From assembly GCA_030704615.1 (NCBI GenBank), contig CM060731.1, positions 4,960,001 through 5,024,000 of the forward strand: DNA of 64,000 bases, given 5' to 3'. The position numbers and the translations under genes are program-made. The notes below the pieces were generated by a model. It saw only the letters and a list, made by a program, of their open reading frames with translations, did no database searches and was not told the DNA's origin. Below are positions 9,101 to 54,459 of the stretch, in pieces (the first letter of the stretch is position 1; every line of letters begins with the position of its first letter). The DNA is from Takakia lepidozioides (taxonomy: Eukaryota; Plantae; Bryophyta).

Positions 9101-12100
9101 TCCAAATTCACACATCAGATTTAGTCATACCCATACTGTGCTTGAATTGTACCCATAGACCCCATGCCTTGATCACTTGAGTGAGAAGCCTGTTTTACAA
9201 TTTCTTACGGGTGGAGGGCTGGGGAACGGCACAAGTGAAGAGCAAATTGAGTGCAACTACTTTGGCTGAAGGGATGTGACCTGAAATGGAAGTTGAGTCT
9301 TCTCATACAGTTTTTTTCTTTCTTGTTTGAGGAGGGAGGAGGTTCGAGGAAGGAGAAAGGAAAGGGAATGAAAAGGAAATTTGTAATGTCCACATGAAGC
9401 TCAAAGAGCTTATGGGACAAAGGAAAGAATGGTACAAGAAGGAAGTGGGCCCTCACCAAGCAGCCCAAAAATAACATTCAAGGCTAAACATTACGAAGGT
9501 GGACAACCTCATGTTGATATGCTGGCAGGCATTTCTGGTTCTCATCATGAAAGACCAGCGAGGGACTGGCTGACAGAAATGAAAGACATATTGACGTAAC
9601 AAAAGGAGAGGAAAATGATGTAATAACATCCATGTGAAGCTCAAAGAGCTTATGGGACGGTAGAAATGAAATGAGATGGTAGACAAAATGCGAAAGAAAG
9701 ACAAAAACCTTTACAACATCCACAGGAAGCTGAAGTGGCTTATAGGACAAAGGAAAACAGGGAACCTCGTAACATCTACATGGGGCACCAAGGGCACATG
9801 CAACAAAGCAGAACAACAAGAAACCAAGCAAAAGGAAGGAAGGAAATGACATGAAAGTCTTCAGGTTGAAAATTACTTGAATGCTGAAGCTGAACAACTG
9901 ATGGCACTGTCTTGTACAATGGCCAGCAATAAGCATCATTGGTCACAGCAGAAAATCGCTCGAGGAAAACTTGTTCTTCTTTTGGAATTTCTTCAGTGGA
10001 GAATTCAGACCAACCCCCTTGGCCAGCACTAGTGCTATTCCAGTGGACATTAGGTTGTGAATTTGGCTCTGTATCCATATAGCCAGGATTTTGATAGGCG
10101 ACCCCTGAGATCGACTGGTCTCTTTGAGGGCCTGCCACTCCATAGCTGGGCTGGTGAGCTTCCCAGCAGGAGCTATTACTGTGTTCTTGATGGGCCAGCG
10201 AGTCATGGTCATTGAGTCCCCTGGGCGGAAAAGAAGGAGTGTGGCCCCGCGAGAAGGGGGCTGGCCATAGCTTTGATTCCAGAAATGGAGTAACTTGTCC
10301 CATTGCGTTAGTTGGACTCTGTTCAGTGCATCCTCTATGAGGCTGGAAGCCCTGAACTAACAAAGGATCCTCTGCTGACTTCATGGCCGTGTCAAATGCC
10401 CCAAAGTCTCTGGTTGTTCTTGGCTGCTCACAGAACTGCTGTTTGTCATCTCCTTGCTCCTTCACATTTTCCCTGCAGATTATAGGTACTGGGGGACTCT
10501 CAGAGGAAGTCGTCTTGACAGCATTCTGTGACTTCTTGAGCTTGACAGTTACAGGGTCCAGTAAGGAGAGATGCAAGTCAGGGTCTGTTGTGAGTGAGAA
10601 AACCTGCTGTACATAAACTGCTGCAGTTGGAGGTTGCCTCATTGGAGCATCTTCAGTTGAGCATTTCAAAGGCATTGACCTGTACAAAGCAGAAGGATCC
10701 CATTCCCAAATAAAATTTCTCCCTGATGTGATTCAGAATGTTTCTTTAGGTGTGCAGTAATTGATTTTTCAATTCTGGCATACTTGAAAATTCAATCTAA
10801 TCAATTAGGAAGAGCGGATCCAGTCATCCCTCAATCGGGGGAAGCTAATTACCCTTCAGATGCTGGATGAGGTTGAGAAGAGTGCTCCAATGTACCCTCA
10901 GAGGCCACAGTGTCAGCCATATTTGACACCCTTCTCATTTGATACATCTCTGATTTGGGGGGTGGACCAAACCTCTCTCCAGCTTGCTGTTCATTCCTGG
11001 TAGTCGCACTCACTGAAGAGATTGATGTGGAAACATGTGTATTCTCAGTGAGTTGCTCCTTCAAAGGCCAAAATGCCTGAAGGGAAGAAGGTTGGGATTC
11101 GCTTACAGTTCTGCAGTGAGACACAGATGGAGCTGATGCATGTCTGGCAGTTAAAGAAGAACCTGCAAAATTTTGATCCTCCAGGTGTTTGTCAATGGCC
11201 TTCATAGTGCACTTTTCTGATATGCATCTCTCAATACGTACGTTTTGCTGGATGCAGTTCCCAATGCTAGACCCAGGGGCAGCATTGTTTCCTGGCAAAC
11301 TTTGGTCACCTTCAGGGTTACACACATCTGCAATTTCGTTGACTTGCATTTGGTGTTGCTCAGTATCAGGGCCCTCTTGTGGCCATATCTCCCTAGGTGG
11401 ACATACCTGCAGGATGCTTGTTTCAATAAACTTAACATCATCAGCATCTTTTACTGGCAGGTAAAAGTTAGGTCTCTCAAAGGGTCCAGTTTCAGAAGGG
11501 TGGGAATATGTAGGGGTCTTGTCTTCTGGCTTTTTCACAGCAACTAATTGGCACCCAGCTACTTCATCTCCTACGGCACTGTTTTGACATGTATGACTCG
11601 TTCCATCCGAAGTCGACACCGAGCTATCAGCCAAAAGAGGATAAATCCCTCTCCTGTCTCCATAGCCATCCTCCCCTTGTAATGCGACCACCTCTTTCTC
11701 TTCTGTTCGGAACTTGCGTCTAGCTGCTGCTTTTTTCCAATTCTGCATCAACCAGCCATTCGTGAGGCTGTTCTTCACTCGTAGAACTATCGGCATTTTT
11801 CGTCTCCGGCATTCCCTGATATGGCCATCCTCTTTCACTATCTCCCTCACAGCCCCTGCCCCCTGCAATTGTCCCATTGGCACATAGACGAAGTCTTGAA
11901 AACTTCAGCAATGCAGATCAGCTTGGGTTTCTGAGAGACAAAGAGACTGGCCTTCTCAATGTTAAGCAATCACACAAGACCTATATCAGCCAATTTCACC
12001 CACACATTACCTTAACATTTAGAAGAGGTGATGTGTCGGCACTCAATTGGGCCACTTAATGATGTACCAGCCCAGTGGACCAGCATTATTAAACTTTGCA

Positions 12101-15100
12101 TAATTCACATGAAAATTGGAGGTGAAAGAGGAAGGGGGAAGTGGTACCCCTAAGCCAGACAAAGAAAACACTTTTTCCACCATTTTCGGCACTACTCCCA
12201 ATTTCTTGTTGCTGAAATGTAGCTCAGCTACCATATATGTATCCTTCTACAAAGCTTGGCCCCCTTTCTATGTCTACCTGCCTAGAAAGCTTCTTCTCTG
12301 CTTGCTTAAGGTACTCAATGTTTCCATAACCAACCTGAATATCAAATCTCAGAATGCCAATTGGATTCTGGTTTTGATTCTGTGAAAATCTGTTATGTTA
12401 CAATAATGTTACAATAATCGTGCTTGGAAGTTTTTGACAAAACATTCCACATGTATTGACAAATTAGACCTCCCTCCCCCCACATGTAAAGTGGAGATTT
12501 GACTATGGACTACATATCGCAAAACTCTTAAATTTAGTCTCAGTCAGAAACTAAGTAATATTACCTCCAACCTTGTTGCATGGCTCTCAGACTGTCTTTC
12601 CTTCGAAATGTTTGTTTCTTGGGCCCCAGGACTCTCTCCCAAGTTCCCCGTTTCCCGTGTTGTTTCCATATGTTCACAAGACAGTTGGTTTACTTGAGAT
12701 TTTTGGGTCTCAGAGTCGAACCGCATGTTAACTCTAAGGTCTGCTTCAGCCAGTCGTCTAGATGACACTTCCTTGTCATGTATCTGGAAAACCTTAGGAT
12801 CCTCCTCTTCCTTGGCCAACACCGCAGCTCCCTGTTCCATGGCCTGCCGACCTCGATCAGAGTTCAGATATGTAACTGCCACCTTGTTACTTTCCTTGCA
12901 GGCTGGAATTCTGACAGGGAAGCTCAGTAATTTCCCTTCCTGGAAGGACAGGTATTGGCAAAAGAGGTCCTCGGAGCTGGTGATGCTTTGGTTGTTTGGA
13001 ACACCTAATCCCCACGCCTGTTGCTGGAAGGCTGACTTCAAGCTTCGCAAAGCAAAGCGCCGATCACACTTGGAGATAGTAAAATGCTGAGAATCCAGAA
13101 GGCCTTCCTTTGTTTCCTGTGGTCCAGCACTGATTGTTTTTTCTCTAGTATCTGTTAGTATTCCCGCCAGATGAGGGGCACTCCCTGGCCTTTCTGCTAG
13201 TGATCCCATACCCTGCTGCAGACAATGGATTTCACCGCCTATCAGCAAGCTGAATGTTGAAGCATACAAGACAGCTTTCAATTCAACAAGAATGGATCAC
13301 GATTTGATGTGTATAAGGTAAACTCTGATATTTATGTATATGAGCAACTAAACAAGAGATGCACCCACAGTGGTCTAACAAAATTCATGCAGATGTTTCC
13401 ACGACCTCTCATGATTCTCTGCAATTCAAAACTACCTTTTCACAAAGAATGGCAGTCGGGGAACAAAAGTCCTGGATAGTAGACAAAGATCTCCTTTCGG
13501 ATTGGGAACCTGCCGCGTGTGTGTAAAGCTCGCCTACTGACAGTTGGTGAGGCTGATGGATTCGGCTCTCCAACCTGAGAGACCAAATTAACTGTAGATA
13601 ACTCATACATCAATTGCACGATATGTATTATGGAGAACAAAAGCTCAACTCCACCAGGCTCCTTAATTGGGAGCATTATGGACTGAGTGCACGCATGAAT
13701 TGTCAACATCCAGGCTAAAGACACATGGGACCTATCTCTGCATCATAACACCTGAACTGTGCTTAACTTCAGACAGTGGCAATATGCACTTGTAGTAAAC
13801 TCTGTGCAGAGGTGATCGATTACCCCCTCAACACCGCAGACAAAAAACTAGAAAATGATATCGCCAACATAGAAAGGTACATACAGGGGTGGCGTCTCCC
13901 AACCAGGCCACAGAAAATTCCCGTCGCTCCCTATGAGCGAACTGCTTCGAAGAGCATGCTTGGAGTGTCCAGAATCTCCTTGTCTGCCCATGTTTGAATG
14001 CTTGAGATTCAACCCAATCTTCTCAAGCTGCTCAATATTTGGATTAATACCTCTAGCCTCTTCCCTTTCATCCTCAACATCAGCCGACTGCAGAAAACTC
14101 TTATCCTCCCTTAGTAGTAGTTGCACATTGCCTCCATCCACACTCCTACCCTTCCTGTCTACACTGCATGTACCTGATAAAGCTTCCTTCTGACAACTTC
14201 CTTCATCTCCTGGCCCTTTCCTTGCAATCTCTTCTCTTTCTGCAAAGCGGTGTGGGGAATAACTTCGGTATATTGAAGACCTATCCACAGATCCTTCACC
14301 GGACAATCTGTCTTCTGTGCGCAGGTGACACTCGTTGTGTATATTACTCAAATCATTTGGAAGTTTGCTGTGCTCCAGCAGATCAGATTCCTCTACCCCT
14401 TCAACTTCCTGTTTCTCATCCATCAGATACAAGGCACTGTTGTTGTCAAACATCTGAGACCAGCACATTAAGATGTGTCCTGCCCATGTGATCACAACTA
14501 GCACATTGATATGTTAGTACCATCAGCCCTAATAGAATTACCTGGAAGGGAAGATTCTGCAAGTCTATTTCAGCCTTGTCGAAGTTACCAAAAAGAAGCT
14601 AATATTTCTACAGACTGTGCCAACCAATTGTTGAAAGACAAACTAGATACCTTGTTGTGTAGGGTATTCATAGCTGATGTGTGCCTGTCCAAGTCTTTCT
14701 CTGAGAGGTTCAGGCCTTGTTCAGTTTGATCCACTACAGAGTCTGACAGACCAGCCAATCCCTCACCCCCATCTTCTACAGAACTGTACCACTGCAGCAC
14801 ACGGGACCCGAAACTCACTCTTTCTAGGGTACCCTTCCCACACTTGTCCAACCGAACAGGGCCATCATCAGGTCCTTTTGCCAAATGTCCCCCCATCGCT
14901 TGGCCATAGACCATTTGATCTTTGAACCCACATTCGGTCTCCTCCCCTACTTCAACACACCCAGCAGAGAGCTCCGTGTCATCGTGCCTTTCGGTGCAGC
15001 AGTTTGTAAAGGCAAGTTGTTCTTGTAAAGGGAAAAACAACCGTTGGGTCCCTCCTTCTTCCAAGTCTATAGCCAGAGCTCCCCCTTCTGAATCTGTAAA

Positions 15101-16715
15101 CAGCACTTGCTCCACTGTTGTAACTGGAAGTTGGGTGGTGTCCTTGCAGTTCATGCTAATCTCTTTGCCATCCCCCTCAGCCACACCAACTCTTTCCTCT
15201 GTGTCTTTCAAACTTAAGGATTCTGCAGGCTCCTCACACCGTACGCTCCCGTTCTCTAACATGCTAGTTTGCACAGCCCTAGGACTGGTTGTGCAATTGG
15301 CAGCCACAAGCCTTCCCCCCTTATAGCCAGATAGTTCCAACTGCTTTTCAGAATTGTGATCCAGTGATGCCAGTGACTCCTGCCTCCTACTATTCTCAGA
15401 GCCACTTTCTACTGCATGTCTTTGTCTGACAGGACTTCTTGCACTGTGAAGGCTTGCCCCAGCAACAGAATGTTGCATACGTTCAATTCTTAACACTCCG
15501 GTCTTCAATGAAATAAAGCTGCAGGCCATCGGACTGTTTGATTGGTCCATCTCCGAAGACCAGCTCAGCTGACTCCCAGACCTGCCCTTATCACTTTCCC
15601 TTTCGTATCTGTCCTTTTCTTGTGTCTCTTCCTCCTCTGCTCCTTCTATCGATCGTTTTGTCTCCCACTCTATGTGGTCCTCAGATTCTAGAAACCTTTC
15701 CCTTGGCCAATTCTTTCGTACATAACAATCATAATGTGTCTCCTGCCCTCTCTTGCTGCCGCATGTGGCTTTCCTCTGCGCAGAAAAGAGGTAGATGCAC
15801 TTTGAACATGTGACACCATATGCATTGGAGAGTTACCTCCCACTTTACCTGCTTCCAATATATGTTTGTTACATTACATTGATACTACCAAATATGCCTT
15901 GTGTGATTGAATTAATTTCAGAAGATCTTTTGTTCATAAGATTGGTAGGAGATTACCTCGTTTTCATCAGACTCTTGCTTATTTTCTGTCCCCTCTCTCT
16001 CAAACAGCTGGATCCGCTGCCGCAAATTGTCCTTTCTCTTGTCCTCCTTATGGCACTTATCAGTCTTGTACCTCCCAGCCTCTCTACCCACCTCCCCTAA
16101 CTCTTCATAATGTTTGCTAGCGTTCCACTGTGACCCCTCCTCTGTCTCGCTCCTTGTCATCTTCCTCCCTGTGGATCTCTCTTTCTCTGTTGTTGTGACT
16201 GCTTCTAATTTTTGTTCTAATGGCAAACCATTACAACTTGTGAGCATATCCACCGGTGAAAGATGTACATTGACTCTCCCTACATACGGGTCCCCTTTTG
16301 GATCCATGCTCTCCTCTTTAACAATCTCACTCTTAGTTTCTGCTGCATCAATCTGACGTCCGGCCCACTTGTCAACCACTGATAAATTGAGTCGCTTTGG
16401 AGGCTCCCAGACCTCTGGAAACATCAAACTCTCCCGCATTTGAGGCATCATTTTCGTCTCTGAGAACAATGATACTGGGACTGGTACTGGTCCTTCATCG
16501 TGGGAGCCCTCATTTAAGGATATTGGCAGAGGGGAAGTGATCCCAGTCGGTTTGGACTTGGCCCTTGACCTCAAACCAGGGGTTCCGTTAGTGTGGGCAC
16601 CACTTGTGAAAGTGAAAACAGTGCCCTCGTATGTGCCATCCCAAAAGCTGGTGGAGTTCTCTAGGGTAGCGTGTGGCTTTTTACCCACTGCATCCCCTTC
16701 TTTTTGCTCCATCAA
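357..16715 (-). CDS. Large multi-exon, mostly low-complexity protein with C-terminal IQ calmodulin-binding motifs; both ends uncertain and may extend past the left edge of the window
   Basis: Chain of long minus-strand ORFs with S/E/Q/P-rich composition, many bounded by AG/GT: ~15956-16715, 14571-15778, ~13850-14455, ~12565-13220, ~10851-11900, ~9890-10680, ~8478-8950, ~7244-7755, 3740-3942, ~1678-1857, ~357-535. Exon ~357-535 encodes IQAATKGSRVRRHL, an exact match to [ILV]Qxxx[RK]Gxxx[RK]xx[FILVWY]. Exon ~1678-1857 encodes AASVIQRAWRALMRR. The full splice path was not resolved. Confidence 0.6.
4030..7140 (-). mobile_element. Nested array of LINE family A fragments, including ORF2 C-terminus and a degenerate RT segment
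   Basis: At least 8 (CATTT)n-tailed 3' ends between 4030 and 5830. ORF 6597-6866 encodes LGRFMVGSHSLRVETG..DRLCPSC..EHYFFHC, a Cys/His C-terminal motif. The minus strand near 7040 reads GVKQGCPLSPTL and near 6915 YADDVVLL, both non-LTR RT motifs. Confidence 0.85.
6104..6248 (-). mobile_element. 145-bp solo LTR (TRIM-like) containing a tRNA-like sequence, inserted in a LINE A fragment
   Basis: Termini TGTTGGA...TCCAACA (TG..CA, 7-bp inverted) with 5-bp TSD AGCTG at 6099-6103 and 6249-6253. The uninterrupted LINE A copy at ~51036-51056 has a single AGCTG (GTGCAAGCTGGACATAGG). Minus strand 6196-6125 folds as a degenerate cloverleaf with A box TAGCTCAGTGG and B box GGTTCAATCC. Confidence 0.8.
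9360..9850 (-). mobile_element. Older, degenerate LINE family A 3'-end fragments
   Basis: Diverged AAGCTCAAAGAGCTTATGGGAC motifs at ~9397, ~9637 and ~9727, plus a degenerate YEDQKCLAAYLH-like peptide (DENQKCLPAYQH) in ORF 9484-9939. Confidence 0.7.
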
Positions 16716-19700
16716 GCAACCTTAGATAGTGTGGAGCTTTCCTGGTCAAAGATATCCGCCAAGCTCTCTTCATTCAAAACCAGATCCGCAAGGAGAGGCT
16801 ACATGTATGTAGCTCATAAGAAGCCCCTGCAGTCAGTCGTCCGCTTACAGAAAATTGTCGGGCTTAAAGCACAACTTTTTGTCAACCAGTTGCATCAACG
16901 AGCACCTCAAGCCTGAAGATCCAACTAATACTTTGGAGAATACTTCAAAACTCCACTCCACCAATGTTACATAGTTATTGAGCACAGTTATTGAGCTCAC
17001 TAGAGGTTTAAATCAGAGATTGCAGGAGTTAACAGAGATTACAGGCCTAAACATGTCTCGGTCATGTAAGCAAGAAAAAGGAACGGAGACAGACAGACGT
17101 CAGGAGAAACTGCGCATTTACACAGAGTGTGAACCGAATGACAGATAACCTCTTGGTCATTGCTGCTACATCACGATTAGCATAACGCAAACTCTCGATC
17201 AAGAAACAACAAGAAATCAAAAGGTAGAAGCAGGAGTGTACTGGGAGGCCATTGTGGTGGGCACTTTGGTGAAGTCTAGAGACAAATACCCTCAATTGGC
17301 AGTCCCTACAGTGAGTATGAGTTGGCCATTGATAGTATCTCTGCTTTAGTGACAAACCACAGCTTTTCCAACTAGAACTCGTGATTCAATCAGTCAAGGA
17401 CGTGGACAGCAGAAGAGAAACCCTAGCTGCAAAGATCGGCGCTTAGGCCCATCAACCTCCTCAACCAACCAGTCTATGTTACACATTTTAATGTGACAAC
17501 TAAGCCTTCCTGCTTCAAGAAGCGACCGGATTCTTGCGACAAGAGGTTGAAATTAATATATGATTCCATTAGGGATATAAAAGCAGGTCATTTCTTCAGG
17601 CGAGTGTCACTCAGGAGATGAGATGAGGGAAAAGAGACGAGGAAGAGACGGACGAGCGCAAGGGTTGCCAGTAGGGAAGATGGGGAAGACAGATCGAACC
17701 GGAGATTGAAGCAATCCAATGACATACCACAGGTGACGCCAACCAACGGCCTCTGTCTACCGGCTCACTACCTTCGCCACATGAACCCCATGCCGCAGAT
17801 GCCAGGGTTCACGGCCATGACTCCAGACACATAAGGGTTTGACAGTTCGAGAGTGAAGACAGCAAGAAGAACAAAAGAAAGAGCGGGAAGACACGTAAAC
17901 GAAATTAACGCGGCGTTCTACGCCAACTGTTTATGCGATGATCAGAGCTTCAACTATCTCCCCACCCATGACTGGCATGCCACCAGATGAAGACAGACTT
18001 GCAGCACACAAGCACACATAGGGTTTCGACAGTTCCAGGGAAGCCAACGAGGGACGTGGTGAAGTGGAAATGGAAAGAAACGGTAGTTGACTCCCAACCT
18101 ACCGTTACTCCGTCCCTGGCCCCGGAGCCGGGACTTGTGTGTGGGCCCGCAGTTTCGTGCTCCCGAATCCTCATGCATGCAAGCCTTTCAACTACCTATT
18201 CTGTTAAGTTTTCACCAAACAGATGTGGTCCGAGGCCGTTAGGTGTGGGGAACAGTGAAAGTAAGGTAGGTTTTGCCAGTATGAGGCTGCATGAGCGGGC
18301 CATCTGAGATTGGATGTGTGCGCACTGCGCACCAGGAAGCTCGGGAGACCAACCTTTGATTGGAAGCCATTCATGCTAAATGGACAACCGGAGATCGGAT
18401 CAGTGTGATGTCATTGGATAGCAAGAACCTACACCCTATCTTTCAGATTTCGGCTGGCTACATGGCAAAAACATTTGGTGTTTGACTAGGTTAGCCGGAG
18501 AGAACTCTCCTGGCTGGTTTGAAGGGAAAATCGAGGTGCCATCCCACCGTCTCATGCCTCAATAAAGATCTCTGACAGCCATCATGATTGTCGTGATAGA
18601 CTTGGGGATAGGTGATAGGTTGACGCAGATATCCGAGACCGACAGTGCATTGACATGCATCCGGAAGGAAGAACTGAGAGCGGTGGCAGCTTCTTACAGG
18701 TGCATACGGTGATATTGTAACAGACTTGAGATAAATATGTCTAGTTGTCATGACCGGCTGCTGATTCTTTGAAGTTCGGCTGAGGCCCTGTGTCTGTGCG
18801 CCACAGCTCGCACCTAGCTGTCAGCACAATCTATCTGTAAAAACTTCATCCATTCTTGAAGTTCCCATTGTCCTGATCTTATGAAAGGAAAGAAAGGGAA
18901 ATGAAAAAGAGATCCATGTCACGAGAGTGAGGACCCAATCGGAGGGGCGAGCACCCCGACTGTCGAACTCCTGTTTGAGATCCAGGATAAGGCAGGTAGT
19001 ACGTACTTGTCCACCCCGTGAAACACTGTTGTTGCCAGCAACTTTTATTACTCTCTCGGATCTCCCCCGAAGTTCGGTTTGAAGAAGAGATGGACCGCTG
19101 TGAATGGAAACTGTGTGCATCATGCAAAATTTCCATCATAAAGTCATCTTCTGTTTGGATAAGAGCTGACACAAAGAGTACCTCACTCCATGCCAAGGAT
19201 ATTCTCCCCGTTGCGCAATCCAAAAGCCAATCTCTGCAGCTTTTCCTGGAAGCAACACAATACACCTAATAGTCAAATGTTTGCAGCGGGTAGGCATCCA
19301 TTCCTTTGGGTGGGTGATTTAGGGTTTGCCGAGTAAAGGAAAACAACATTTCTAGCTTCTCTCGACCTCTGTGCCCAAACGGTGTACCACGAAAAGCTTG
19401 GACAGGCATACGCTCAAATGATTGGGAACAGTGTACTCACAATCAACGAACTTACCTGCCTCTATGTACTATTGTTTTTCCAAGTTATAATACGTCTACC
19501 TAAAAATATGTGGGGACAGGCAAGTATGCAATTCTCGCAATTTGAGTCACAATTCTCACAGGTGATGCTGGGTTCGAATCCTTCTAACTAGTTGTGTGTC
19601 GTGTATAATCTTCTCTTCCCTCTCTGTTTTCCTGTAGAAAAGGAAGGAACGTAGAATAAAATTTGTTCTCGAAAACAAAAAGACGTACCCGATAAATACC

Positions 19701-20348
19701 GGGCCGCCCCCGGCGGATTGTCGGGCGATGGTTTCTAAGGGAGAGGCGGGCCCAGTTCAGGGGGGCTACCTGCTCGCTGGATGGGTAGCACGCCCGAGGC
19801 AGCGTCCCGCCCGCTGCCTCTCTCGGACTGCAATCGCTTGTCGTTTTTGGGCGTGGGTAACGTTCGCTATCGCTCAGGTGGCCGCCTGCGCTGCCAGACT
19901 GTGTGGCCACGAGTTTGGTAGTGGTTGATTTTGTAGAATCCGGCAGGGGGCATTAGGCTCAACTGTTGGTTCGGCAGTTGAGTCTCCCGCGTCCTAGTTT
20001 TGGTGAGAGGTGGGAGAAGAGAGAGCATGCTGTGCGGCTGTGTAGGATAGGATTGGTACGTGCCTTGCCCTGACATTTTTTTCGTAAGGGCGGCTGCGTC
20101 AATTGGAGTTCTTGTGTCTCTTGGTTGACTTGGATATGGTTTGAGGAGTAAGGTGTAAAGAAAGACGGGAAGAAATTCAGTGCGGGCGGGGAAGTAAAAG
20201 TATTTGCCGCAAGGGCAACATTGGTTTTGAGAAAAAGCGTTTTGTTTGTGTTGGTCAATAAAGGCAGCACAAAATTTTGGTAAGATAGAGCGTGTGTGTG
20301 AGAGAGAAAGAGGGTAGAATTAGCGAGGATATAGATGTGGACGTAAAG

Positions 20349-23300
20349 ATGGTGGCCACAAAGCAATTCCCTCCAGTGGATTTGAATCCGAAGGAGAAGA
20401 AAGGTGCCGGCAGTGAAGGCGGACCTGGTTTGATTGAACCTCTGGGGGGCTTCATCTTTGTGTGCAACAATGATACCATGAGCGAAGACTTTGAGCGCCA
20501 TCTTTTTGGTAAATTCTCTTTTTCCTTGAGTAATGCAAGTCTTTGCATTCCATTCTACGTTTTTGTGGCGTGTAGCTGAGCGACATTGGAGTACTTCCGC
20601 TTGTGTAGAAGGAAATGTGCGCAGACAGGGTAGTGAAACTCACAGATTCTTCTAATGAAGTCCTCAACCGATCATTAGTCACTGATATCCACTTCATTTT
20701 TTGTTGTGTGTATAACATCGAGGGCTTCTTCTGCCTGTTATAAATTGGTATCTGATTTTTGAGGAGATTGCATTTGCCATCCGGAAAGTCGGCCTCCAAC
20801 AATTAACTGGGCGTCTGGAATCTCATACAGGGTTATGAGGCGTGGTATTCCGTGTCTCGGATGAATTACCTCCCCCATTTCATTGTTCACAAAGTCTAGG
20901 GCTTTGTCTTCGAGATATATCATTGTAACCAATTTTATTGTCATTATGGAGGCTTGTAAATCTTGGAATAGATAAGGTTCTATCAATTTCAGGTTTAACG
21001 AAGATCAGCAGTTTTTAGTCATTTTGTGCTCCTTGAGGTTTGAGTAGGTGTTTGACACTATCTAGAAATTGGCATGATTTTATTTCTGTTTGTTTTTCAA
21101 ATTCGGAAGGTATATGCTTGCTTGATTGTCTGGTGGTCAGATCTATGCATGATAGTAATTCAATAATCTTTTTGACTCTGAAAGCTTTGGTAAACATTTG
21201 TGGGTTGAGACAGGCAAGCAAGTGGTCTGTACGCATATATAGTGCTTGGTGAAGCGCACTGATGACCTCCTCATATATTATTTTGAATTATTTGGGTTTT
21301 GCCTGGTTTTCCCCTAGCCTTCTATCTACTTTGTCCTTTTAAATTAAAGAGTCCAATGGTCCCCGGTGAATAATGCTAATTTTATTTTGCTATGCCAATG
21401 CAATGTTCATATTCCATTGGCTTCCCAATTGGAGCACTGAAGCATCATATGTTGGTTCTGTGTTTATGTTGAAGAGCTAAGCCTTAGAAATATTTGAGCA
21501 ATACCACGTATGTGATCTTTGGTGGATCTTTCCCCACGCATCAAAACCCCTCCCAGTGTATAACCATGTTTAGCCACACCTCTCTCACAAGAGTTGTAAT
21601 TATCTTGCCCAAAAGTTAGGTTGACTATAGCTGGTCCTGAACACAAATATGAATGAGTGAATATTAATAGCATACCCACCACCCACAGGGGTCAGTACCT
21701 GTGGGGGAAGGTGGTTTATGCTGGCTGGAGTCTTCTCTCTATATAATACCAATACACTAACAATCCATAGATCTGATGGAAAGTTTTTCATTTCCAGTTA
21801 GGGCCTGCCAACAGCATAAACCTCAAGGTGTCCAAGGTTGTGGAATTTCGACCAGCTTGACCACTATGTACAGTTTCAACTAGAACCCGTTGATTAGAAC
21901 CGTCTGACGACAGATTGGCTAGCTGGAGAGCCCTTCCTGTTTGCTGAGGTTGCTGAAGGCTCAGTGAGGCAGTTTTCTGCTAGTTCATAAATCTCCCTCG
22001 CTGAAAAATCTGACGATGATTCTCTGGTCAGGGTATGGGCAGCTCCGGACGATAGTATATGAGCAGTAAACTAGTGACTAGGACACTTTGTATAGTCTGA
22101 AGTGGGTATTGCATTTAATTGCAGGGGTTGTTGCAGAATTTTTGCTTGCAACAAATGCTGTAAGCTCTATTGGTGGAATTTTAGTTCTTTAGATATCAAC
22201 TTGATCTGGTTACAATGTCATATCATATGGAACAATGACACCATCTCTAGGCATGGGTTGCCCAGACTGTGGGCCCTCCTATCTCCTCCATACGCATTAT
22301 GAAGTACAGTGTGTACCGTGTTATGCAGCCACATGTTGTAAAGCTGTGTCAGCTTGGGACCTGTGGCAATTGTGGGCTGAGTTTCCATGCCCTGGAGGGT
22401 AGAAACTCCACAAGTTCCTTCAGGAGTGTTGATATCCTGTTGGTACCCTCATCATCCTATGATGATGAGGGTACATCATCATAGGCGACATCTTGTCTAA
22501 AACTCCATCCTCGCAACCCTTGTCCTAAAAATGGAGCTTACTGAAGCAACCTCCAATTTTAATGCTGAAAAATTACTCACAACTACATCTGGGGTTGACT
22601 AAAACTGATATAGTTTTGTTGGTTAGCTATGGTGCAAGAAAAGTGAAAACTTGGGCTGTACGCACTGAACAGGGGGAAAAACTGAGAAAGGTTGTCTGCA
22701 GCCAGTCTCCCACCGAGGCTATTGTTAGCTATTATCATTCTCATTCTCTTTTGTGCACCACTCCTTGAATAACTACTGTAAATAGTTTACATTACCATCC
22801 TCCTAAATTATGGAGCCCTGTGCGGCCACCGAGTTTTTATTTTTAGCAACAATGGAGCCTGTTATGTCGTGTATTTAAAGTAGTCTTGTAGAATGAACTT
22901 GTCTGCAACTAAACCTTTTTCATCCTACAAATTATAACATTATAAGGAGACCTCCCATCTATCTCCTCCTTTTTCTGCACATACCTACTGGTTTTTTAAA
23001 AGGGTTTCCCCTAAGGAAGGAACAGTTTAGACATCTGCAGCCATCCTTACTTCAGCTGATCTTTGTTGTTCTTCTCTGTGACAGTCCATGGTTAGATTCA
23101 TGGTAACCATCTTCTAAATAGTCAGCAGATACTCCAGAACTCCCACCTATTGCTCTGAAGATTCCCAATTGTGTTAGGATCATGAAATTGTCTGTTCAAT
23201 TCCTTTGGTTTGGTATATCTATTTATGCAAGGGTGTCTCATGTATTTCTCATGCATAGATTATCTGACGGTTCTCACTGACTCATTCCAATGTCCAGGGT

Positions 23301-26300
23301 TGCCTCAAAGGTATCAAGATTCTGTGAAGGCCATACAGCCAGGGCTCCCACTGTTTCTTTACAACTACTCCACTCGGAGCTTGCATGGGGTTTTTGAGGT
23401 CTGCTCTCCCCCATAAAAGGAAAATCATTTTCTGATGTTTCTTGATATCTCAACTTAGGTTTTTGCTATGTACATATTTCTGCAGATTCCTGTCAGTTTC
23501 CTGTCAATAATACTCTTGCTCTTGTTTAGTAGTTCATGCTTACCATGCGGATGCCACAAGAAATGACATGAATGCAAGACCTTAGGTGATTCCACAATGA
23601 CCGATATGCATCAGAGTTTCTAAAGAGATTCATGTATATTGAGGACAAGATCTCTCTCGAATAATACGGACAACAGTTAAACCACCATACAAGAATCACT
23701 AAAATTGTGTACATTGCTAGAGGGTGTCCGTTCCCTTTGCTCAACAACCACTTCTCCCTCTAAAAGTTTTGGTTGTTGCTATGTTTATTGAGTAAACTAT
23801 AAACCTGATGGAGCTATTTACCATGCCAATTGACTCCACATATTGACAGAGGTCAGACCATGCAAACAGCTAGTGAAACCAGTCTTTACAAGTGTGGTAG
23901 CAAAAGAGGCTGCTGATTTTGTGATTTCGCTTTTCTATATTAGGCAGCAAGTGATGGAGGCTTGAATCTTGAGCCAGATGCATGGGAGAACAAAGAAACA
24001 CGGAAGGTTGGTAGGCAGGCCTCCCGATTTCCCGCACAGGTAACCCTACTTTTGCACACTGTGTGCTTGTCCCAGTGGCTGCATATTTCCTGCTCTTGGA
24101 TGGAAGACACCAAAACGTTTGCCAACCTGGGTTGTCAAATCACTCTGACTGCTGGAAGTATTGGAAAGATTTAGTAATTGCAATTTGCAACACTGTGATG
24201 GTCTACGTTTACTTTTAGTTGGCCTTGTATAATATTCATGTGGAGTGGTGCAGGTGAGAGTGCGCTGGCGGGAACAGAGACCACCGCTTGATGAAGAGAA
24301 GTTTCGCCCATTACTTTTTCACTATGATGGCCCAAAGTTCAAGCTTGAGCTCTCGGAGGCTGAGGTATGCACTCATATTCAAGTAATGAATTTCCCTTTG
24401 GGTCAACTGTCATCAGTAAATGGTTTATGTTTTCAAATGCTCCTAGATCTCGTAAATGGTCTGTGCCATACTAAAATATTTGCAAGGGTCTCTGGCACTC
24501 TTCACCTTCTCCCTTTCTTCTCACATCTTGCTTCACTGATGATTTTCCAGGCAGAGAATTTGTTGAAGCTATTTGGAACTCCCAGCAGTCAGAAGATGGA
24601 GGAAGTCCAGGATGACTGTGGAGGCGAATGGGAAAAGGTCAAAAACAAGAGTAAAGTGACTCGTGCTTACCGTCCCCCTCCTTCCAAGAGATCCACATCT
24701 CCAAACTCACCAGCGGGACGAAGACGATCAGGTGCTCGCCATGCAAGTGTGCCCCTTATTAGTTTGAATACTTCAATGAATGGTGATTCTTTTGGTCGTG
24801 GGAGAGAGAGCAGGGCAGATATGGCCCAAAGATGGAGATCAGATTCAGATTCCTGGAGTGGTTCTTCAACTGCCACAGCTTCTTCTAGTTGGGCCTCACA
24901 GGATGAAGAGAGGCCCAAGAAAGGGCACCTCGAAAACGAGGGATTGATTGCTGATGCAAATGGGGTAGCTCTAACATGTAGTGAGTTTAATAACATCCAT
25001 TCAATGGAAAAGGCGTTTGACCAAGCAAATGATTGCTTTGAGAATGTGAGTGATGGGGACTGTGCAAATACTGAACACTCGACTAGTGAGGTTCATGTAA
25101 GCAATGGTGGGGGTCCCCCATTGGGTTTGCGGATACCTGTCCCTCCAGGTTTTGTGTCTTACAGTGCAGCTTTGAAAGCTGGGATGTCTGCAGCAGACAT
25201 GGAAACATGTAATGGAACCAGCAATAGTTCTACTGCAGTGCATGACGATGGGAACATCACGAGTACTAGCGGGAGTGTGGGGAATAGTCGGGCTTCTTCC
25301 GGCTGTGCCCTGATTGCAAACGGTACACCTACGCAGGCAGATCTGCAAGGAGACATAAAGCTAGCACCTATGAAACAAAATATAGACTCTGGGTCACGCG
25401 GAAAAGGTTTCCATGCTGAAGGCGGGATTAGCAGTACGCAGATTTTGGGATCTTCCAAGTCAATTGAACAGGGAAGGGGAGAGCCCAAAGATGAAGAAGT
25501 GGTCCTCGAAGAAGAGGGGAGAAGGCTAGATAGGGGGCAGGTATGGGCCCACAGCAAGTCCACTTTGGCCAGGTTGGCACTCACAGAAGCCAGGAATGGG
25601 CTTGCAGTAGGGGCACGTGACAGCCCACAGTTAAATGGAAAAGCTTCCATTGGTGACTCATGTGTGCAGTCAAAGAAGGTTTTGAAGGATGGGTCTAGAA
25701 ATATCTTGATGGAAGGTGAGAGTGCAGACACCAGCATTACCGGCCATCAGGCACGAGAGACAGTACTGGATGACAAGTTTAGAAATGAGACAACAGAAGC
25801 TGTTACAAAGAAAGCTTGGCAAGGGAATGATGTGGCTGTGCTTGGCCGGTTGCATGATACTGACCCTGCAGTGAGCAGCAATTGTTCAATGAATGATAGT
25901 TCTGTAGGCCATCGGTTATCTCCACGCTCTGACCTCATCAAGGAGACGACAGACATTGTGGTTAAAACTATGGCTTCGCACCTTCCGGTCACATCACCTG
26001 CAGTGGTGGAAAGGGTGCCATTTGTCCAGTCTTCAGTACCTGAGGGGCAGCAGAATCATTGGCCAGTGGATAAATTTTCTGGGCCTCCTCCACCTTCAGT
26101 AGTGTTCCCCTCACCTCATGTTAAGCCTTATCCACAGGTCTCAACATTACCGCCAAGCCGGCCTGTACATGAGTCACGCCGAAGCCAGCAGTATGACCAC
26201 TTGAAGCATGAGAAACATGTTGATGATAGGATGCATTTCCACAAACAGCAAATGCCTGCTCCTGAACAAGCCCCCACAGTTCTGCATTCACAGCAACAAA

Positions 26301-29300
26301 GGCAACTTGGACAGGGCTTGATGCTTCTTCGAATCCCGACCCCTCCCGTAACTCCTGTGCACCAGCATCATCATCCCCCAATATTGTCACCTGCCCTTCC
26401 GACCCCTCATTACCGTGACCGTTCGCATGCACGCAATCGTTCTGGTGCAGCTTCAGTAGATGGGGGGTCATATGGAATGGCTTATCGCCCCATTAGCAGT
26501 GGCCCACCAGATGGAGACATGGGAATTCAAAGCCCTGTTTTGCAGGGTGTTCCTTCACCAATGATAAGTGTGCAGCCTATCTTGTTTCCCCTTTCGGGAA
26601 ATGGCACATTTCCACTGCCTCCAAATGATTTGCTGGGAAACGTGGAAGCATTGCATGCAGAGATTTTGGAGTATGCCTGCATGGCAAGGCCATCAGCAGA
26701 TGCCAGGATTTGTGCAGAGGCTGCAGTGGATTGTGTTAGAGAGGGTGTTAAGCGACTCTGGCCCAGCGCAGATGTTGAGGTGAGAGTGATTTTTCCTGTT
26801 ATGTTATATACCTAGGCCAACTTGGATAGGAGACTAATATAGATAACCAGATCGGCTGTGTTTTCTAGAAGGGTGGGCTCTCTGCGTGGTGTACAGTTCC
26901 AGGATCTTTCAGGTATTGTTGAACCCAGTTTCTTTCTGAAAGACTCTTCAGTTCACTGACCTAGCGGACAGCGATCCTACCCAAGATAACACTGGTCTTT
27001 ATCTATGGCCAGGTCTTTGGTTCCTTTGCAACTGGGCTGTGCCTTCCACACAGTGATGTTGATGTGGTAGTGGTGGATTCACCACCCCTTCCTGATACAC
27101 CAGAAACAGCTACCTTGTTTGGGTCCCGAGCCCTAGCTCCTCTCGTTCGGGTACTCGGAGCAGCTCTCAAGGAGTATGAGTGGTGTGTGAGCTTATCTAC
27201 CATTGAAACAGCTTCAATGCCTGTGATCAAGCTTCGCTGCAGACCCTCCACAATAGCTGCAGAAATTCTATCTTCGTCCCCATCCCCTGCAGTCGCAATT
27301 GATATAACGATCGGAGGGAGAAAAAAGGGGAATTTGGGAGGGGCCCAGACCACACAGGGAACAGAGGGTGCTGGAAACAATACACAATTGAGTGCAAAGT
27401 TTGAAGCAGCAACGAAATTTCACAATGGTGTAGCTGCAAGGGAATATGTTATTGAGAAACTCCGTGATTTCAGTGCCTTGGCACCACTGGTACATTCCCC
27501 ACACCTTCATATATTTATGGGTTTTCTGTGAAATACTCTCTTTAATTGTACCCTTTCCCTTGTGGACATTATTAATTCTCTGCTCTTCTGTCCTTCCCTC
27601 TGTTTTGTACTACGGTGTTGTTCTACTTGCCCTTGGCAGATACTGCTTTCTCTTAAGAGACTCCCGGAGTCTTTGGCAGATGCCTTCAGCTTAGTGTCTG
27701 GCAGCTTAGCTGCATGAGGCACTTCGTCTTTGGGCTACTCTGGGCTTTCATGTTGTTCTACTTTGTCCCATGGGCCGTTAAGTCTCTCTGTCCCTGCTTA
27801 TCAAGCACTTATGTCCCATAAGCTCTATGGGCTTTCGAGGGACTTTGTTAGTTTTCTTTCTTGCTCTGTGTTTCTCCATTTGGAGAGACAGAGAATGTAC
27901 TCATGAGACATTTGCTGTAGCCTTGTGGCTAGAGACCCCGCACCTAGTTTGGAGAAGAGGGAGAAATGAAATGAAATGGTGCTTTATAACGTCCGCGGAA
28001 AGCTCATAGAGCTTATGGGACAAAATGGAAGAACATGAGAGAGGAACAAATCCAGAAACCACAATTAATGTTCTAGCGATTGTCTAAGGGTGAAGGCCTC
28101 GTGCAGGTAGGCTGCCAAGCATTTTTTATCCTCATAGTGGAAGACATCAGTGAGAGTTTGGGTTCCACTGAATAAACAGTGGAATCTCCCACGGATCTCG
28201 TAGTATAGAGGGCAGTAGAAGAAGAAGTGTTCTTCAGTTTCAATTTCCTTGCTGCGCCCTATGGAGAGAGAGAATGTACTCAGACGTTGTTTGCCGTAGC
28301 CTTATGGCCTTGGAGAAGAGGGAGAGAGAGATACATTTTCACTCCTAGATCCATACATGTTCTTCATATTCTGAGTCCAAATCTTACAGGTGCTACTGCT
28401 GAAGTCATACCTACACCACAGAGGGCTCAACGATGTGTATTCAGGAGGCCTCGGATCATTCTCCCTAACACTGATGCTAGTGTTCTATTTGGAAGTAAGT
28501 CTCCCCGCCTTTTCCTTCAGTGTCTTTTTCTGAGGCTTTTCAAATCATGGCGCGAAGTTTAGTGGTTCCCAGTTAAGTCTGAAGCATGCATGTCACTAAG
28601 TGTCGCCAACTTGGCTGGGATTTTTGAGGAGCAGCTTCCTTACATTGGAAAAACTCCAGTGACATTCTTCTGTTGTTCAAAGAAGTGGCCTTCATTTTGA
28701 GCATGATGGAATATTTCATGCCAGCAACAACTTGTTGCAATATGGCTGCACCCTCATTTCAGACTAAAGGGTACCATCACAACTCTCAGAAATGGCTATT
28801 CTGCTGTACATGTGGGGGAATCTTGTAAGAAGAGGCTGCGTCACAAGGAACTGATTAACCAAATTTATACAGATTATGCAAAATGTTCATTTAACATTGG
28901 ACTGGCTCTCAGGGTCATAGTGTGGTATGCAGTGTAACTGTCTCCATGGGAAGGGGAAAAAGGGCCCTAGGGACACAAATAGGACATCAAAACAAAACAG
29001 AGAACAAATTCCCAGAAACTAAAGAACTACTCAAAGCTCATGAGGAAGAGAAATGAAATGAAATGAAATGGCACTTTATAACGTCCGCAGAAAAGCTCAA
29101 AGAGCTTATAGGACAAAGGGGAAAAACAAGAAAAAGAGACAAAAACACAGCCAAAAGCAGCCCAAAGCAACTACTGCTCAAGGGAAGAGAAAGAGAAAGA
29201 GAAAGATTACATCAAATTCTCTCATTCTTGTCTTTATGTGGTGTTTCTCTGCAATGGCAGCGGGCACCCCTGTCTTGTGGTACACCCCAGAAGGTGACGC

Positions 29301-31424
29301 CTCAGGAGGCACCATCAGCTCCGTCTCCAACCTCCTTTACAAGCTCAGCTCCCCTGATCCAGCCATTTGTCAGCACATCTCTTTCAGCACCCTCTTCAAA
29401 GAGAACTGATTCACTCGACTCTTTTGATGACAATTCATCTTGCTCGTCGGCATCAACTGACACAGCCTTGTCATCAATCAGTACATCCACTTCCACTGCT
29501 TCCTCTTCTGAGGATTCTTTGCTACATGGTGGGTATTTTCAATGCATAGTGTTTCTTTTGTCTACATTGTTTCCCTCTTGCAGGGCAGTCATCAGATTAG
29601 ATTTCAAGTAGACTTTTGCAGGCTTAATGCAATTTTTGGAGGATCATTGGTAGTGAAGTGGAGTTAGCAAGACAGTGCATTCGGCGAGGTCAACATTATG
29701 AGCCAAAGGTTGAACCATTGAGCAAACTCAGTAATAGCTGTTATATCAGCACAATATTGTGCAAGATTCATGCCAGTACCTGAGGAAGGCAAGTTTGAGG
29801 CTTGGCACACCAGTGCCACACTCAGTCATTTGGGAGGTAAAGCCCATGTGGCCACAAACACTTTAACTTTATGTGTTGCTTCAGTCCAACATATGCAGAC
29901 ATAAAGTTCTCGAGATAAATGAATTTGGAAGGGCAATATGTGCACAGGAGGGTTGTCAGTCGTGGAGGATGGATCAGCACGTTTGCAGTCTGGCAGTGGC
30001 GAGCCCCTTGTGCGGAGGGCAGGGGGCATCGTGGAGGAATTGCTGGGGTCAATGCACTCAGTGCAATCTCCAAATTTAGGGACATTGTTGATAGGGTTCC
30101 TGCAGATTTTTGGGATGGAGATTGATTTCTCACATGTGCGCCTTGTCTTGAAGGTTCAACTATACACTGCCTCTTTTGATTTTTCCTTTGCTAGTCTACC
30201 GCTAAAGAGAGTTGTTAGACATTCTGTTTCAATATCTGCAACCTCAACAGAGATGCAAGAAACTTATCGTTCGTGATTACACATCTGTAAAATACTCAAG
30301 CTGACTGGCATAGCACTAGATGCTGTGGGGCTGCTGTGGTAGTTGCACAGAATGTGTGGGAACCTAAAGCATTGGCATGATGACACTGTTGACCGCTCAA
30401 TCTATTGAACTCGTTCTTGGTGGGAATCGCAGGGGAGAAATGGGAGTGGTGGGGGGGGTTTGTTCTGGAACGAAAAGATCCAACGGCCAGTTGCCTTGTG
30501 GATTGACGACCCACTTCGTCCTGGTGCCAATATTGGAGCTGGCTCCTTTGCCATGTTTCATGTGCAAGTAAGTCTATCTGTAGATCTTCTTGAGCTTTAG
30601 GGCACGCTACACCAATGGGGATGAGCTACTTGACTCCATAACATCGAGTGTCCGTCCTGAAAAATATTAGTCGGTTTTGATGGAAATTTGGAGGTTCTCA
30701 ACATGGCACAAAGCTACTGGTTTCTATTGATGAACAAGTGGACTAGAAGTAGCTTAAGGCCCTTTCTATGGAATAGCCTGAAGTCCAAAGTAAGAGTAGG
30801 CTGCTTGTCTATGAAGAATAAGTTAAGAAACTGGGAAAAGGTGACCAGTGCCTCTTGGGCATCATGGTAAGGAAAGCTTACCGTTTGATGTAGTGTATTG
30901 GAGGTCCTCGAGTGAGATTCTCACTTTGCAATCTTTAGAAATTTCTGGTATGGTGAAGACTTTTTGGAAGGCCAGGATTGGGCAAGCCTTGTGATGGTAT
31001 GGCCTCTTCTCATCTCACCTCTTGTCCATCCTCACTATCCATCCCCCATTGAAACCTGCCAGAGGCTCTTTGGCCACAGGGCTGTGGCAAGTGCAGTTAA
31101 TGAGTGAATACCTGAAAGCTTTAGTGCCTCTACCTACAAATTGCTGATGGACTTGATTCGTTCCGGATTACTATTGACTCTCTAAAATTGGACTTGTTAG
31201 CTTTATCCCTTGTTAGCTTTATTCCTGTGCCTGACTTTTAGCTGATCCTATTGAAATTGCAGGTTGCATGGCAGGACATGCTGCAACTGTTGACCAGGTC
31301 TTCGGGATCACCAGGTCCTGTGCTAGCCTTAGAAAGGGTTGGAAAAGGTCCAGGCCGTAGGCGACCCTTGCCATTGCTTGACCAACTATTTTTCAATGGC
31401 AGCAATGCTCCTGCAAACTCATAG
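20349..31424 (+). CDS. DCD (Dev_Cell_Death) domain fused to a Trf4/PAPD5/TENT4-like non-canonical poly(A) polymerase; 11 exons, 1349 aa
   Basis: All introns GT-AG with matching phases. Exons: 20349-20508, 23298-23398, 23944-24039, 24254-24364, 24551-26779, 27013-27489, 28390-28494, 29261-29528, 29948-30153, 30433-30567, 31263-31424 (4050 nt). Exons 1-4 encode DCD motifs GGFIFVCNNDTM..HLFGLP.RY.DSVKAIQPGLPLFLYNYSTRSLHGVFEAASDGG.NLEPDAW..SRFPAQVRVR..HYDGPKF.LELS. The C-terminal part has VEVFGSFATGLCLPHSDVDVVV (GS, DxD), the third Asp in IDITI, LLLKSYLHHRGLNDVYSGGLGSF, NLGTLLIGFLQIFG and the PAP-associated LWIDDPLRPGANIGAGSF. Confidence 0.88.
27890..28325 (-). mobile_element. Composite intronic insertion: LINE B 3' stub, LINE A 3' fragment and a second LINE B 3' stub
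   Basis: AATGTACTCA..GTAGCCTT(G/A)TGGC stubs at ~27894-27945 and ~28273-28309, LINE A end at 27965-28260, and a 16-bp direct repeat TTGGAGAAGAGGGAGA at 27949-27964 and 28310-28325. Confidence 0.8.
29050..29185 (-). mobile_element. LINE family A 3'-end fragment in intron 7 of the DCD-TENT gene
   Basis: (GAAAT)n-GGCACTTTATAACGTCCGCAGAAAAGCTCAAAGAGCTTATAGGAC matches the family A terminus. Confidence 0.8.
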
Positions 31425-32179: not shown

Positions 32180-32253
32180 CGACCACGATGGGATTCGAAC
32201 CCACGACCTTTGGATCCGAAGTCCAACGCGCTAATCCACTGCGCTACGCGGTC
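32180..32253 (-). tRNA. tRNA-Arg-TCG: tRNA-Arg (anticodon TCG), intronless nuclear tRNA gene
   Basis: Minus strand GACCGCG TA GCGC AGTGGATTA GCGC G TTGGA CTTCGGA TCCAA AGGTC GTGGG TTCGAAT CCCAT CGTGGTC G forms a complete cloverleaf. T-runs lie downstream and the upstream region is AT-rich. Confidence 0.96.
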
Positions 32254-34199: not shown

Positions 34200-34490
34200 C
34201 CACAGGTGCAAAACCGGCCCCCACCTTACATATCCGAGCTACTCATGTGGCAAGTTAACTATCACTTACCCACCCACCGGGAGAGTGAAAGGAGATTGTT
34301 CAGAGTACACGCTTTGGAAGGTACCTCTGCTGTGGAAGTTCCTCTTAGGTCCGTTGTCTCTGCCTTGCTTGAATTATACCATGCTTCCACCTTTGCTGGC
34401 CATTTGGGGGTTATCTAAAACTGTAAAGAGATTGCAAGAGCAATATCACTGGAAGGGCCCTATGTAAGGCAGCGTGGATGAAAGAGGAGT
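34200..34490 (+). mobile_element. Ty3/gypsy integrase N-terminal (H2C2 zinc finger) remnant
   Basis: Frameshifted reading VP...LLELYHASTFAGHLG / KTVKRLQEQYHWKG from ORFs 34206-34418 and 33907-34467. Confidence 0.6.
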
Positions 34491-34579
34491 TGTACAGTTT
34501 GAACCAAGGAGGCACCCTAGCATATTTTAATATGTATTGCTGTGTGCACAAGCTGGGACTGCACAAGATATCATTCTGG

Positions 34580-35092
34580 AGACAGCCCTTACTCACATAT
34601 GCCAAATGCAGGAGCATCAGTTCGACAAAATGGCTCCACATGTTGTGCTCTCATGTAGGATATGCTCAGCATTGGTATGGTAGGGAGGCTTTCAACATGT
34701 ATGAGCAAATGCAACATAACGGGGTGACACCCAATAGTGTCACATTGATTTCCATTCTCAATGCATGTGCCAGCCTAAGGGAACCTTGGAAAGGAAAAGC
34801 AAGTCCATGCCAACATCAGCAAAGCTGGAATGGCATCATGTATCATTCTGGAGAATAGCCTTGTTGAAATGTATGCTATTGTTACTCTAGTGCAATGCTC
34901 AAAGGATATGCTCAGAATGGTTGTGGTAGGGAGGCTTTTGACACCTACAAGCAAATGCAACACCAAGGGGTGGTCCCGGACAAGGTCACAATCAACTGCA
35001 TTGTCAATGCGCATGCCAGCCTAGGAATCCCGCAACAGGGCAAGACAGTCCATGCTGGTATCATCAAAGCTGGCATGGTATGCCTGTTTTAA
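34580..35092 (+). pseudogene. Fragmentary PLS-class pentatricopeptide repeat (PPR) pseudogene
   Basis: YAKC.SI, GYAQHWYGREAFNMYEQMQHNGVTPNSVTLISILNACASL and MLKGYAQNGCGREAFDTYKQMQHQGVVPDKVT..NAHASLG..QGKTVHAGIIK, interrupted by deletions and frameshifts. Confidence 0.8.

Positions 35093-36102: not shown

Positions 36103-54459
<18,357 letters not shown>

Follow-up and report, generated by a model that had tools for sequence, protein, structure and literature searches.

A DCD domain joined to a Trf4-related nucleotidyltransferase in a conserved, apparently uncharacterized plant protein family

The 64,000-nucleotide (nt) stretch of Takakia lepidozioides DNA analyzed here (the window; contig CM060731.1 of assembly GCA_030704615.1, forward-strand positions 4,960,001 to 5,024,000) encodes, in a single plus-strand gene of 11 exons (20349-31424), a protein in which a DCD domain is joined to a Trf4-like nucleotidyltransferase. 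The script-built model gives a frame of 1349 amino acids (aa) from 4050 nt with one terminal stop, in which the DCD domain (~aa 33-165) is followed by a predicted-disordered linker of ~680 aa and the nucleotidyltransferase (~aa 853-1305). The protein belongs to a family that is real, conserved and apparently uncharacterized, in which an established class of enzyme is combined with a reader module that is plausible though putative. The reading we favor, while giving it an even chance, is that of a tailing enzyme with a built-in RNA-recognition DCD, whose short A-rich tail would mark RNA for 3'-5' decay.

A preliminary description of this DNA had proposed that one reading frame links the DCD domain to an intact nucleotidyltransferase, that a 2229-nt exon 5 spans the end of the former and the start of the latter, and that the gene is accordingly not a merger of two; all three points hold in the 11-exon model, whose 10 introns are without exception GT..AG. 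Exons 1-4 match the Pfam Dev_Cell_Death profile in order and tile positions 1-117 of its 126: exon 1 (20349..20508), which contributes the start codon, matches positions 1-21 (E 0.0087), exon 2 (23298..23398) positions 23-55 (E 2.9e-10), exon 3 (23944..24039), with the conserved W101 and F116-P117, positions 56-79 (E 0.0058), and exon 4 (24254..24364) positions 81-117 (E 0.08). Because these matches end at position 117, the last DCD residues (aa 157-165) are placed in exon 5 (24551..26779; 2229 nt exactly), which holds the DCD tail (24551-24577), the linker and, at its end (26639-26779), the first two helices of the enzyme (aa 853-899), where a homologue is aligned to residues 24-85 of Trf4 (3NYB). 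An upstream open reading frame (ORF) of three codons (20335-20346, plus strand) has its stop two bases ahead of the start codon of the gene.

Joining of the exons in transcripts is seen in contigs of run X1, in which introns 2, 3, 4, 6, 7, 9, and 10 (7 of the 10) are spliced out at GT..AG. The kind of runs X1 and X2 was guessed as RNA, and the X2 contigs lie almost solely on repeats. Further X1 contigs lie over 20024-20479 (exon 1) and 24549-26558 (exon 5). The list of joints does not include those of introns 1 and 8, and X1 has no contig over 26559-27013, which includes the intron 5 junction; such gaps are uninformative. Five coding differences between the X1 contigs and the window are listed, of which two are silent and the other three fall where exon 6 is weakly conserved. 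A dispersed repeat is present in introns 6 and 7 (27955-28263 and 29030-29185), with copies at 4222-4542, 5775-6098, and 50759-51045 and very high contig depth in both X1 and X2.

That one model has been wrongly made out of two adjacent genes, or out of an alternative transcript that terminates within intron 5, is hardly credible. Such an arrangement is suggested by Klebsormidium, where the DCD and enzyme halves are neighboring gene models (GAQ80714.1 and GAQ80715.1), but the Klebsormidium DCD half has the linker motifs of the fusion, and in Takakia a single exon has parts of both modules. Moreover, nine Logan contigs of 3.5-5.3 kilobases, which we infer to be spliced mRNA, each encode a whole fusion of 890-1347 aa, leaving little or no space for introns, and a Psilotum transcriptome likewise encodes the fusion.

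The catalytic palm of the enzyme is encoded by exon 6 (27013..27489), which matches MTPAP-like_central (E 4.9e-9) and NTP_transf_2 (E 4.3e-6) in Pfam. The catalytic triad, earlier described as intact, is so: the GS-x10-DVD motif and the third aspartate (G902-S903, D914 at 27055, D916 at 27061, and D996 at 27301) all lie in this exon. Throughout the family G902, S903, D914, and D916 are each conserved in 40 of 40 rows, and D996 in 39, the remaining row having a gap. On these residues, the nucleotidyltransferase is very likely to be catalytically active. Exon 7 (28390..28494), to which an X1 contig splices exon 6, supplies a Trf4-type helix and the GGLGS motif (a homologue is aligned to Trf4 142-199), and exon 8 (29261..29528), whose acceptor is confirmed by the X1 joint of intron 7, a serine-rich insertion of low conservation within the enzyme. 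The PAP-associated (fingers) region begins in exon 9 (29948..30153); exon 10 (30433..30567) holds the nucleotide-recognition loop (aa 1275-1290, at 30502-30549), and exon 11 (31263..31424) the last helix, a C-terminal motif and the stop codon. The PAP-associated domain of the preliminary description stands insofar as the fingers region with its nucleotide loop is aligned, in a homologue, to Trf4 residues 211-291, in agreement with the fold match, but the Pfam PAP_assoc profile itself stays under its cut-off (it scores in five of eight homologues, with 22.2 bits at best against a threshold of 22.6).

The closest solved relative of the enzyme is yeast Trf4, both by sequence (3NYB, E 8.9e-25, compared with 3.3e-7 for Cid1 and 0.84 for URT1) and by fold (E 1e-15, using the full-length predicted model of the Selaginella protein). 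The palm of Pol-beta type, GS-x10-DxD with a third Asp, the GG[LI]GS helix and the Trf4-like nucleotide loop are shared with yeast Trf4/Trf5, Schizosaccharomyces pombe Cid14, human TENT4A/B (PAPD7/5), and the Arabidopsis TRL (At5g53770), from which the window protein differs by a DCD of its own, an extended linker and the serine-rich insertion. The loop of the window protein aligns to that of Trf4, contains no histidine, and has the signature GAGS where Trf4 has SRGS. In Cid1, the loop histidine has a role in the choice of U. With Trf4 closer than Cid1 or URT1 and no loop histidine, the protein falls outside the terminal uridylyltransferases (Cid1, URT1, HESO1, and TUT4/7); it should be noted that the missing histidine alone leaves U addition possible. 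A tailing preference for A is, from these sequence features, fairly probable.

A search with exon 6 alone found 47 proteins, isoforms included, and as 41 of them also carry PF10539 the pairing of DCD and enzyme is not a matter of chance. Named members are found in Sphagnum, Ceratodon, Physcomitrium, Marchantia, Riccia, Calypogeia, Selaginella, Diphasiastrum, Adiantum, and Ceratopteris; a search with the DCD region (44 matches) adds Closterium and Taxus, and HMMER over 1.84 billion representatives adds Cryptomeria. The architecture is no one-off but marks a family conserved from algae to conifers, with members in mosses, liverworts, lycophytes, ferns, two conifers, and zygnematophyte algae (as which we take the species behind SM000 and Mesen1 identifiers); its catalytic aspartates are conserved. 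Five family loci are present in Ceratopteris (P0036, P0038, P0040, P0047, and P0052). The family was likely lost in flowering plants; no flowering-plant name is among the 50 matches listed for the Cryptomeria enzyme region in a word-based search that covered proteins of 463-1476 aa and missed TRL too. Three flowering-plant matches of the DCD-region search were set aside as having no nucleotidyltransferase, and two of them look like NRP genes merged with their neighbors.

The combination is also seen in protists. Mucochytrium, of labyrinthulomycete type, encodes a DCD (weak, E 6.4e-5), the enzyme and an RRM; CAK9112969.1 has the same three domains, and P0115 a DCD and the enzyme. Although labeled Durusdinium, CAK9112969.1 groups with Mucochytrium at 100/100, and its label may therefore be wrong. 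Among the protist DCD-nucleotidyltransferases P0093, P0115, and P0130, two have a C-terminal RRM, and a long insertion directly follows the DxD motif. A further fusion (P0113, at L002:8001-10862; 27 cluster members) combines a DCD (E 1.2e-23) with a palm (E 3.3e-8) on a eukaryotic, gene-dense contig of 55-62% GC, and its sequence looks like that of a marine picoeukaryote. Its first and third catalytic aspartates are replaced by N and H, and it is predicted to be a pseudo-enzyme.

Phylogenetic analysis of the enzyme (IQ-TREE; 49 of 91 rows after near-duplicates and fragments were dropped, 280 columns) placed 14 plant fusions in one clade (support 100/99), and TRL of Impatiens and Urochloa with one flatworm and one fungal homologue in a separate clade (99/95). 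The nearest named relative of the window protein is that of Sphagnum (71% identity over exon 6; 100/95 in the tree). Grouping the fusions with the flowering-plant TRL of Impatiens and Urochloa was rejected by the approximately unbiased (AU) test (p-AU 1.4e-5). Plant and protist fusions are joined at 87/84, with a long branch, and a single origin of the plant, protist and marine (P0113) fusions is compatible with the data (AU p 0.43). As judged from these sequences, the enzyme forms a separate Trf4-related clade and is no orthologue of Trf4, TENT4, or TRL. The earlier designation as Trf4/TENT4-like thus survives as a likeness, with yeast Trf4 the nearest solved relative in sequence and fold, but not as orthology, against which both the tree and the AU test speak; by its anatomy, the protein is predicted to work like Trf4 without being an orthologue of Trf4 or TRL. 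Another nucleotidyltransferase, belonging to the Trf4 clade, is fused to a NIF phosphatase domain (P0142).

The loss in flowering plants would be only apparent if the family were the seed-free-plant form of MEE44 (At4g00060; MEE44/NTP9) with a different N-terminus. MEE44 is the other, unstudied TRF4 homologue of Arabidopsis, its function being given as unknown in PMC8894942, and no identified MEE44 sequence is in the enzyme tree. However, the 50 matches listed for the Cryptomeria enzyme region hold no flowering-plant name, albeit within a length range that MEE44 may exceed, and in the HMMER scan the named flowering-plant enzymes (20 of 150 rows were named) are of TRL type, at E ~1e-38 compared with 1e-180 for conifers. 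We consider this explanation highly improbable.

The DCD half has all four of the motifs that mark the DCD, a domain of about 130 aa, namely FGLP, LFL, PAQV, and PLxE (PMC1182354), at aa 53-133, and in the homologues PF10539 is matched at E ~1e-40 over positions 1-126 of 126. As structural model we used the predicted Sphagnum DCD (predicted local distance difference test score, pLDDT, 91.5), which is 84-86% identical to the window protein over exons 2 and 4. In VIA-align, it matched the EVE protein PH1033 (Z 14.2, root-mean-square deviation 2.8, 125 residues aligned), the YTH domain of Mmi1 (Z 11.6, deviation 2.9, 121 aligned), YTHDC2 (Z 11.2), and the EVE domain of VcaM4I (Z 11.1); THYN1 also matched, and Foldseek agrees. 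The DCD is thereby predicted to have the PUA-like barrel of EVE/YTH type, and the kinship with EVE and YTH put forward in the preliminary description is confirmed at the level of predicted fold. Structures of YTH (Mmi1, YTHDF/DC, and CPSF30) and EVE (PH1033, THYN1, and VcaM4I) share this fold at Z 9-14, but are only 12-18% identical to the DCD, and a tailing enzyme is attached to none of them. By sequence, the best match of the DCD in the PDB reached E 0.093, and the DCD profile gave no matches there; this weak match pairs F53 with a Trp of MJECL36, an EVE protein. F53 (34 of the 36 rows with a residue there), W101 (33 of 36), and F/Y116 (38 of 38) are conserved aromatics of the family and represent candidate pocket residues; every one of the 16 NRP-type and 18 Kelch-like rows keeps them as well.

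The linker is predicted to be disordered, with pLDDT below 50 over most of residues 169-431 of the Selaginella model. Short motifs recur in it, in 14-22 of 42 rows (counts made without a control). One of them, W-E-x-V, is encoded at 24629-24640 in exon 5 and follows the DCD in six of six rows, P0113 included.

Comparison of the window DCD with other DCD proteins revealed identities of 63-69% to the DCDs of NRP/B2 and of 40-50% to those of Kelch type. NRP1, NRP2, and B2 (DCD subgroup I) fall into one tree group with the fusions, but they have an Asn-rich N-terminus, a C-terminal DCD and no enzyme, as described in PMC1182354 and PMC10388829, whereas in the window protein an N-terminal DCD precedes the nucleotidyltransferase. 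In the DCD tree (47 of 72 rows, near-duplicates and fragments again dropped; bootstrap not fully settled), NRP (95/100) is nested among the fusion DCDs, within a fusion and NRP group of 94/86. This nesting is suggestive, and a clade of fusion DCDs alone is compatible with the data (AU p 0.20). In Riccia sorocarpa (P0090 and P0011), six locus tags separate the NRP-type R1sor_024145 from the fusion R1sor_024139; their contigs are equal in length, and the proximity may reflect an old tandem duplication.

In the favored reading, the DCD would bind a feature of an RNA and so pick the substrate, the tethered Trf4-related enzyme would add a short non-templated tail, mostly of A, to its 3' end, and the tail would mark the RNA for 3'-5' decay. 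Within one chain, the DCD would then take the part that the zinc-knuckle adaptors Air1/2 or ZCCHC7 play for Trf4 as separate proteins, and the motifs that recur in the linker would bring in partner proteins. Binding of RNA by the DCD, suggested by the modeled fold, seems to us slightly the better bet, and decay as the outcome of tailing evenly poised. The reader role is supported by the retention of the fusion from zygnematophyte algae to conifers and by the RRM added in protist versions. RNA binding has been predicted for eukaryotic DCDs that are joined to YTH, KH, and zinc-finger domains (Bell 2020, PMC7641849), and plants are described as having no clear Air1/ZCCHC7 homologue and no reported TRAMP (PMC8894942).

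Several observations weigh against this picture. Two conifer DCDs (P0053 and P0076) have lost the W101 loop, although the enzyme joined to them is intact, the window DCD carries no net basic charge (18 K/R against 20 D/E), and P0113, without two of its catalytic aspartates, indicates that the pairing of DCD and enzyme can persist without catalysis. The position of the enzyme outside the Trf4/TRL clade means that nucleotide choice, the link to the exosome and TENT4-type mixed tailing cannot be transferred by orthology; the exosome decay or mixed tailing suggested before thus has no footing in orthology, neither through TRAMP nor through TENT4. Nucleic-acid binding by plant DCDs is called unclear in Bell 2020 (PMC7641849), and the nearest kin of this DCD, NRP, binds proteins with measured affinities (PMC13570309).

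The last of these points leads to a possible, though not the likelier, account, in which the enzyme tails RNA while its DCD, as in NRP, serves to dock on proteins. Through such partners (e.g., under stress), the DCD would localize or regulate the enzyme, and the choice of substrate would rest with other proteins or the catalytic domain. The isolated NRP DCD binds CRY2 (dissociation constant 4.34 uM) and the fungal protein PevD1 (0.19 uM) (PMC13570309), and NRP acts on the turnover of CRY2 and FyPP3 (PMC10388829); the high identity to NRP DCDs and the lack of net basic charge fit such a role as well. On the other side, the predicted fold is that of the nucleic-acid-binding EVE and YTH domains, plants and protists alike have the DCD tied to an RNA enzyme, the latter with an RRM in addition, and neither "RNA" nor "nucleic acid" occurs in the available text of the NRP-binding study, where RNA binding was apparently not examined (PMC13570309).

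Mixed tailing is a property of TENT4, and a reading that overlaps with the favored one in all but the outcome has the DCD bind RNA and a mixed or short tail protect or mature it, or the tail consist of U or C. The clade is separate from that of TRL, the plant enzyme that marks pre-rRNA for the exosome (PMC8894942), and has its own loop signature, GAGS rather than SRGS. Nevertheless, the nearest characterized plant and yeast relatives adenylate for decay, according to the same source, and the loop has no histidine of Cid1 type, and we regard this outcome as quite unlikely.

Also doubtful, if a little less so, is a more specific version of RNA recognition, in which the DCD would read a modified base, 5-methylcytosine (5mC, or m5C in RNA) or N6-methyladenosine (m6A), and the fused enzyme would tail the RNA carrying it, so that RNA modification would be linked directly to 3' tailing. 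The family would then be an old eukaryotic single-chain reader-writer of which flowering plants lost the enzyme half, NRP/B2 being the orphaned reader domain and thus RNA readers themselves. The pockets of prokaryotic EVE domains hold 5mC and 5-hydroxymethylcytosine, 5hmC (PMC7897488). The Mmi1 YTH domain, from the protein with which the preliminary description drew an analogy, is the top YTH match: Mmi1 is reported to bind such a motif on the opposite face (PMC4737157), and because its pocket does not bind m6A, the analogy points to a plain sequence motif.

That the architecture had not been characterized agrees with our full-text searches, which do not reach most subscription journals; they found no published description of a DCD-nucleotidyltransferase fusion or of five gene identifiers of the family. 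The words "nucleotidyltransferase" and "TRAMP" are absent from the accessible text of Bell 2020, whose Fig. 13 shows plant DCD classes that could include this architecture (PMC7641849), and "DCD" and "moss" are absent from the main-text passages available of a paper on Arabidopsis tailing enzymes (PMC13030794). Plant tailing enzymes have been cataloged from flowering plants, with ten in Arabidopsis (PMC13030794). Database names are automatic ("DCD domain-containing protein" and "non-canonical poly(A) RNA polymerase PAPD5/7"). The heterokont Znf-YTH-DCD-KH (CPSF30-like), eTudor-DCD, and CAPAM-like-DCD proteins (Bell 2020, PMC7641849) likewise join a DCD to RNA-processing domains, but with other partners. 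The family adds an apparently unstudied Trf4-related class, seemingly missing from flowering plants. Since Marchantia (MARPO_0059s0047) and Physcomitrium (LOC112277319) carry it, knockout and assay are possible, and the tails on target RNAs would be a direct readout of what plant DCD domains bind. Should NRP/B2 descend from a fusion DCD, RNA binding would become a candidate function of this known stress and cell-death family.

Elsewhere in the window, long ORFs (219-415 aa) on the minus strand at 7188-16721 have no Pfam match and probably belong, as exons, to a single large gene whose transcription runs away from the DCD gene. Reverse-transcriptase fragments (LINE-like) lie at 38483-41366, 44565-46316, and 51609-52736, with two copies 97% identical over 1765 nt, and SWIM-finger transposase-like fragments at 61432-63478 (minus strand). 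A protein kinase exon is found at 42322-42807 (minus strand) and a PPR fragment at 34427-34858 (plus strand). Two tRNA features, both on the minus strand, are a tRNA-Arg(TCG) at 32180-32253 and, at 6124-6196, a tRNA-like gene whose anticodon is broken.

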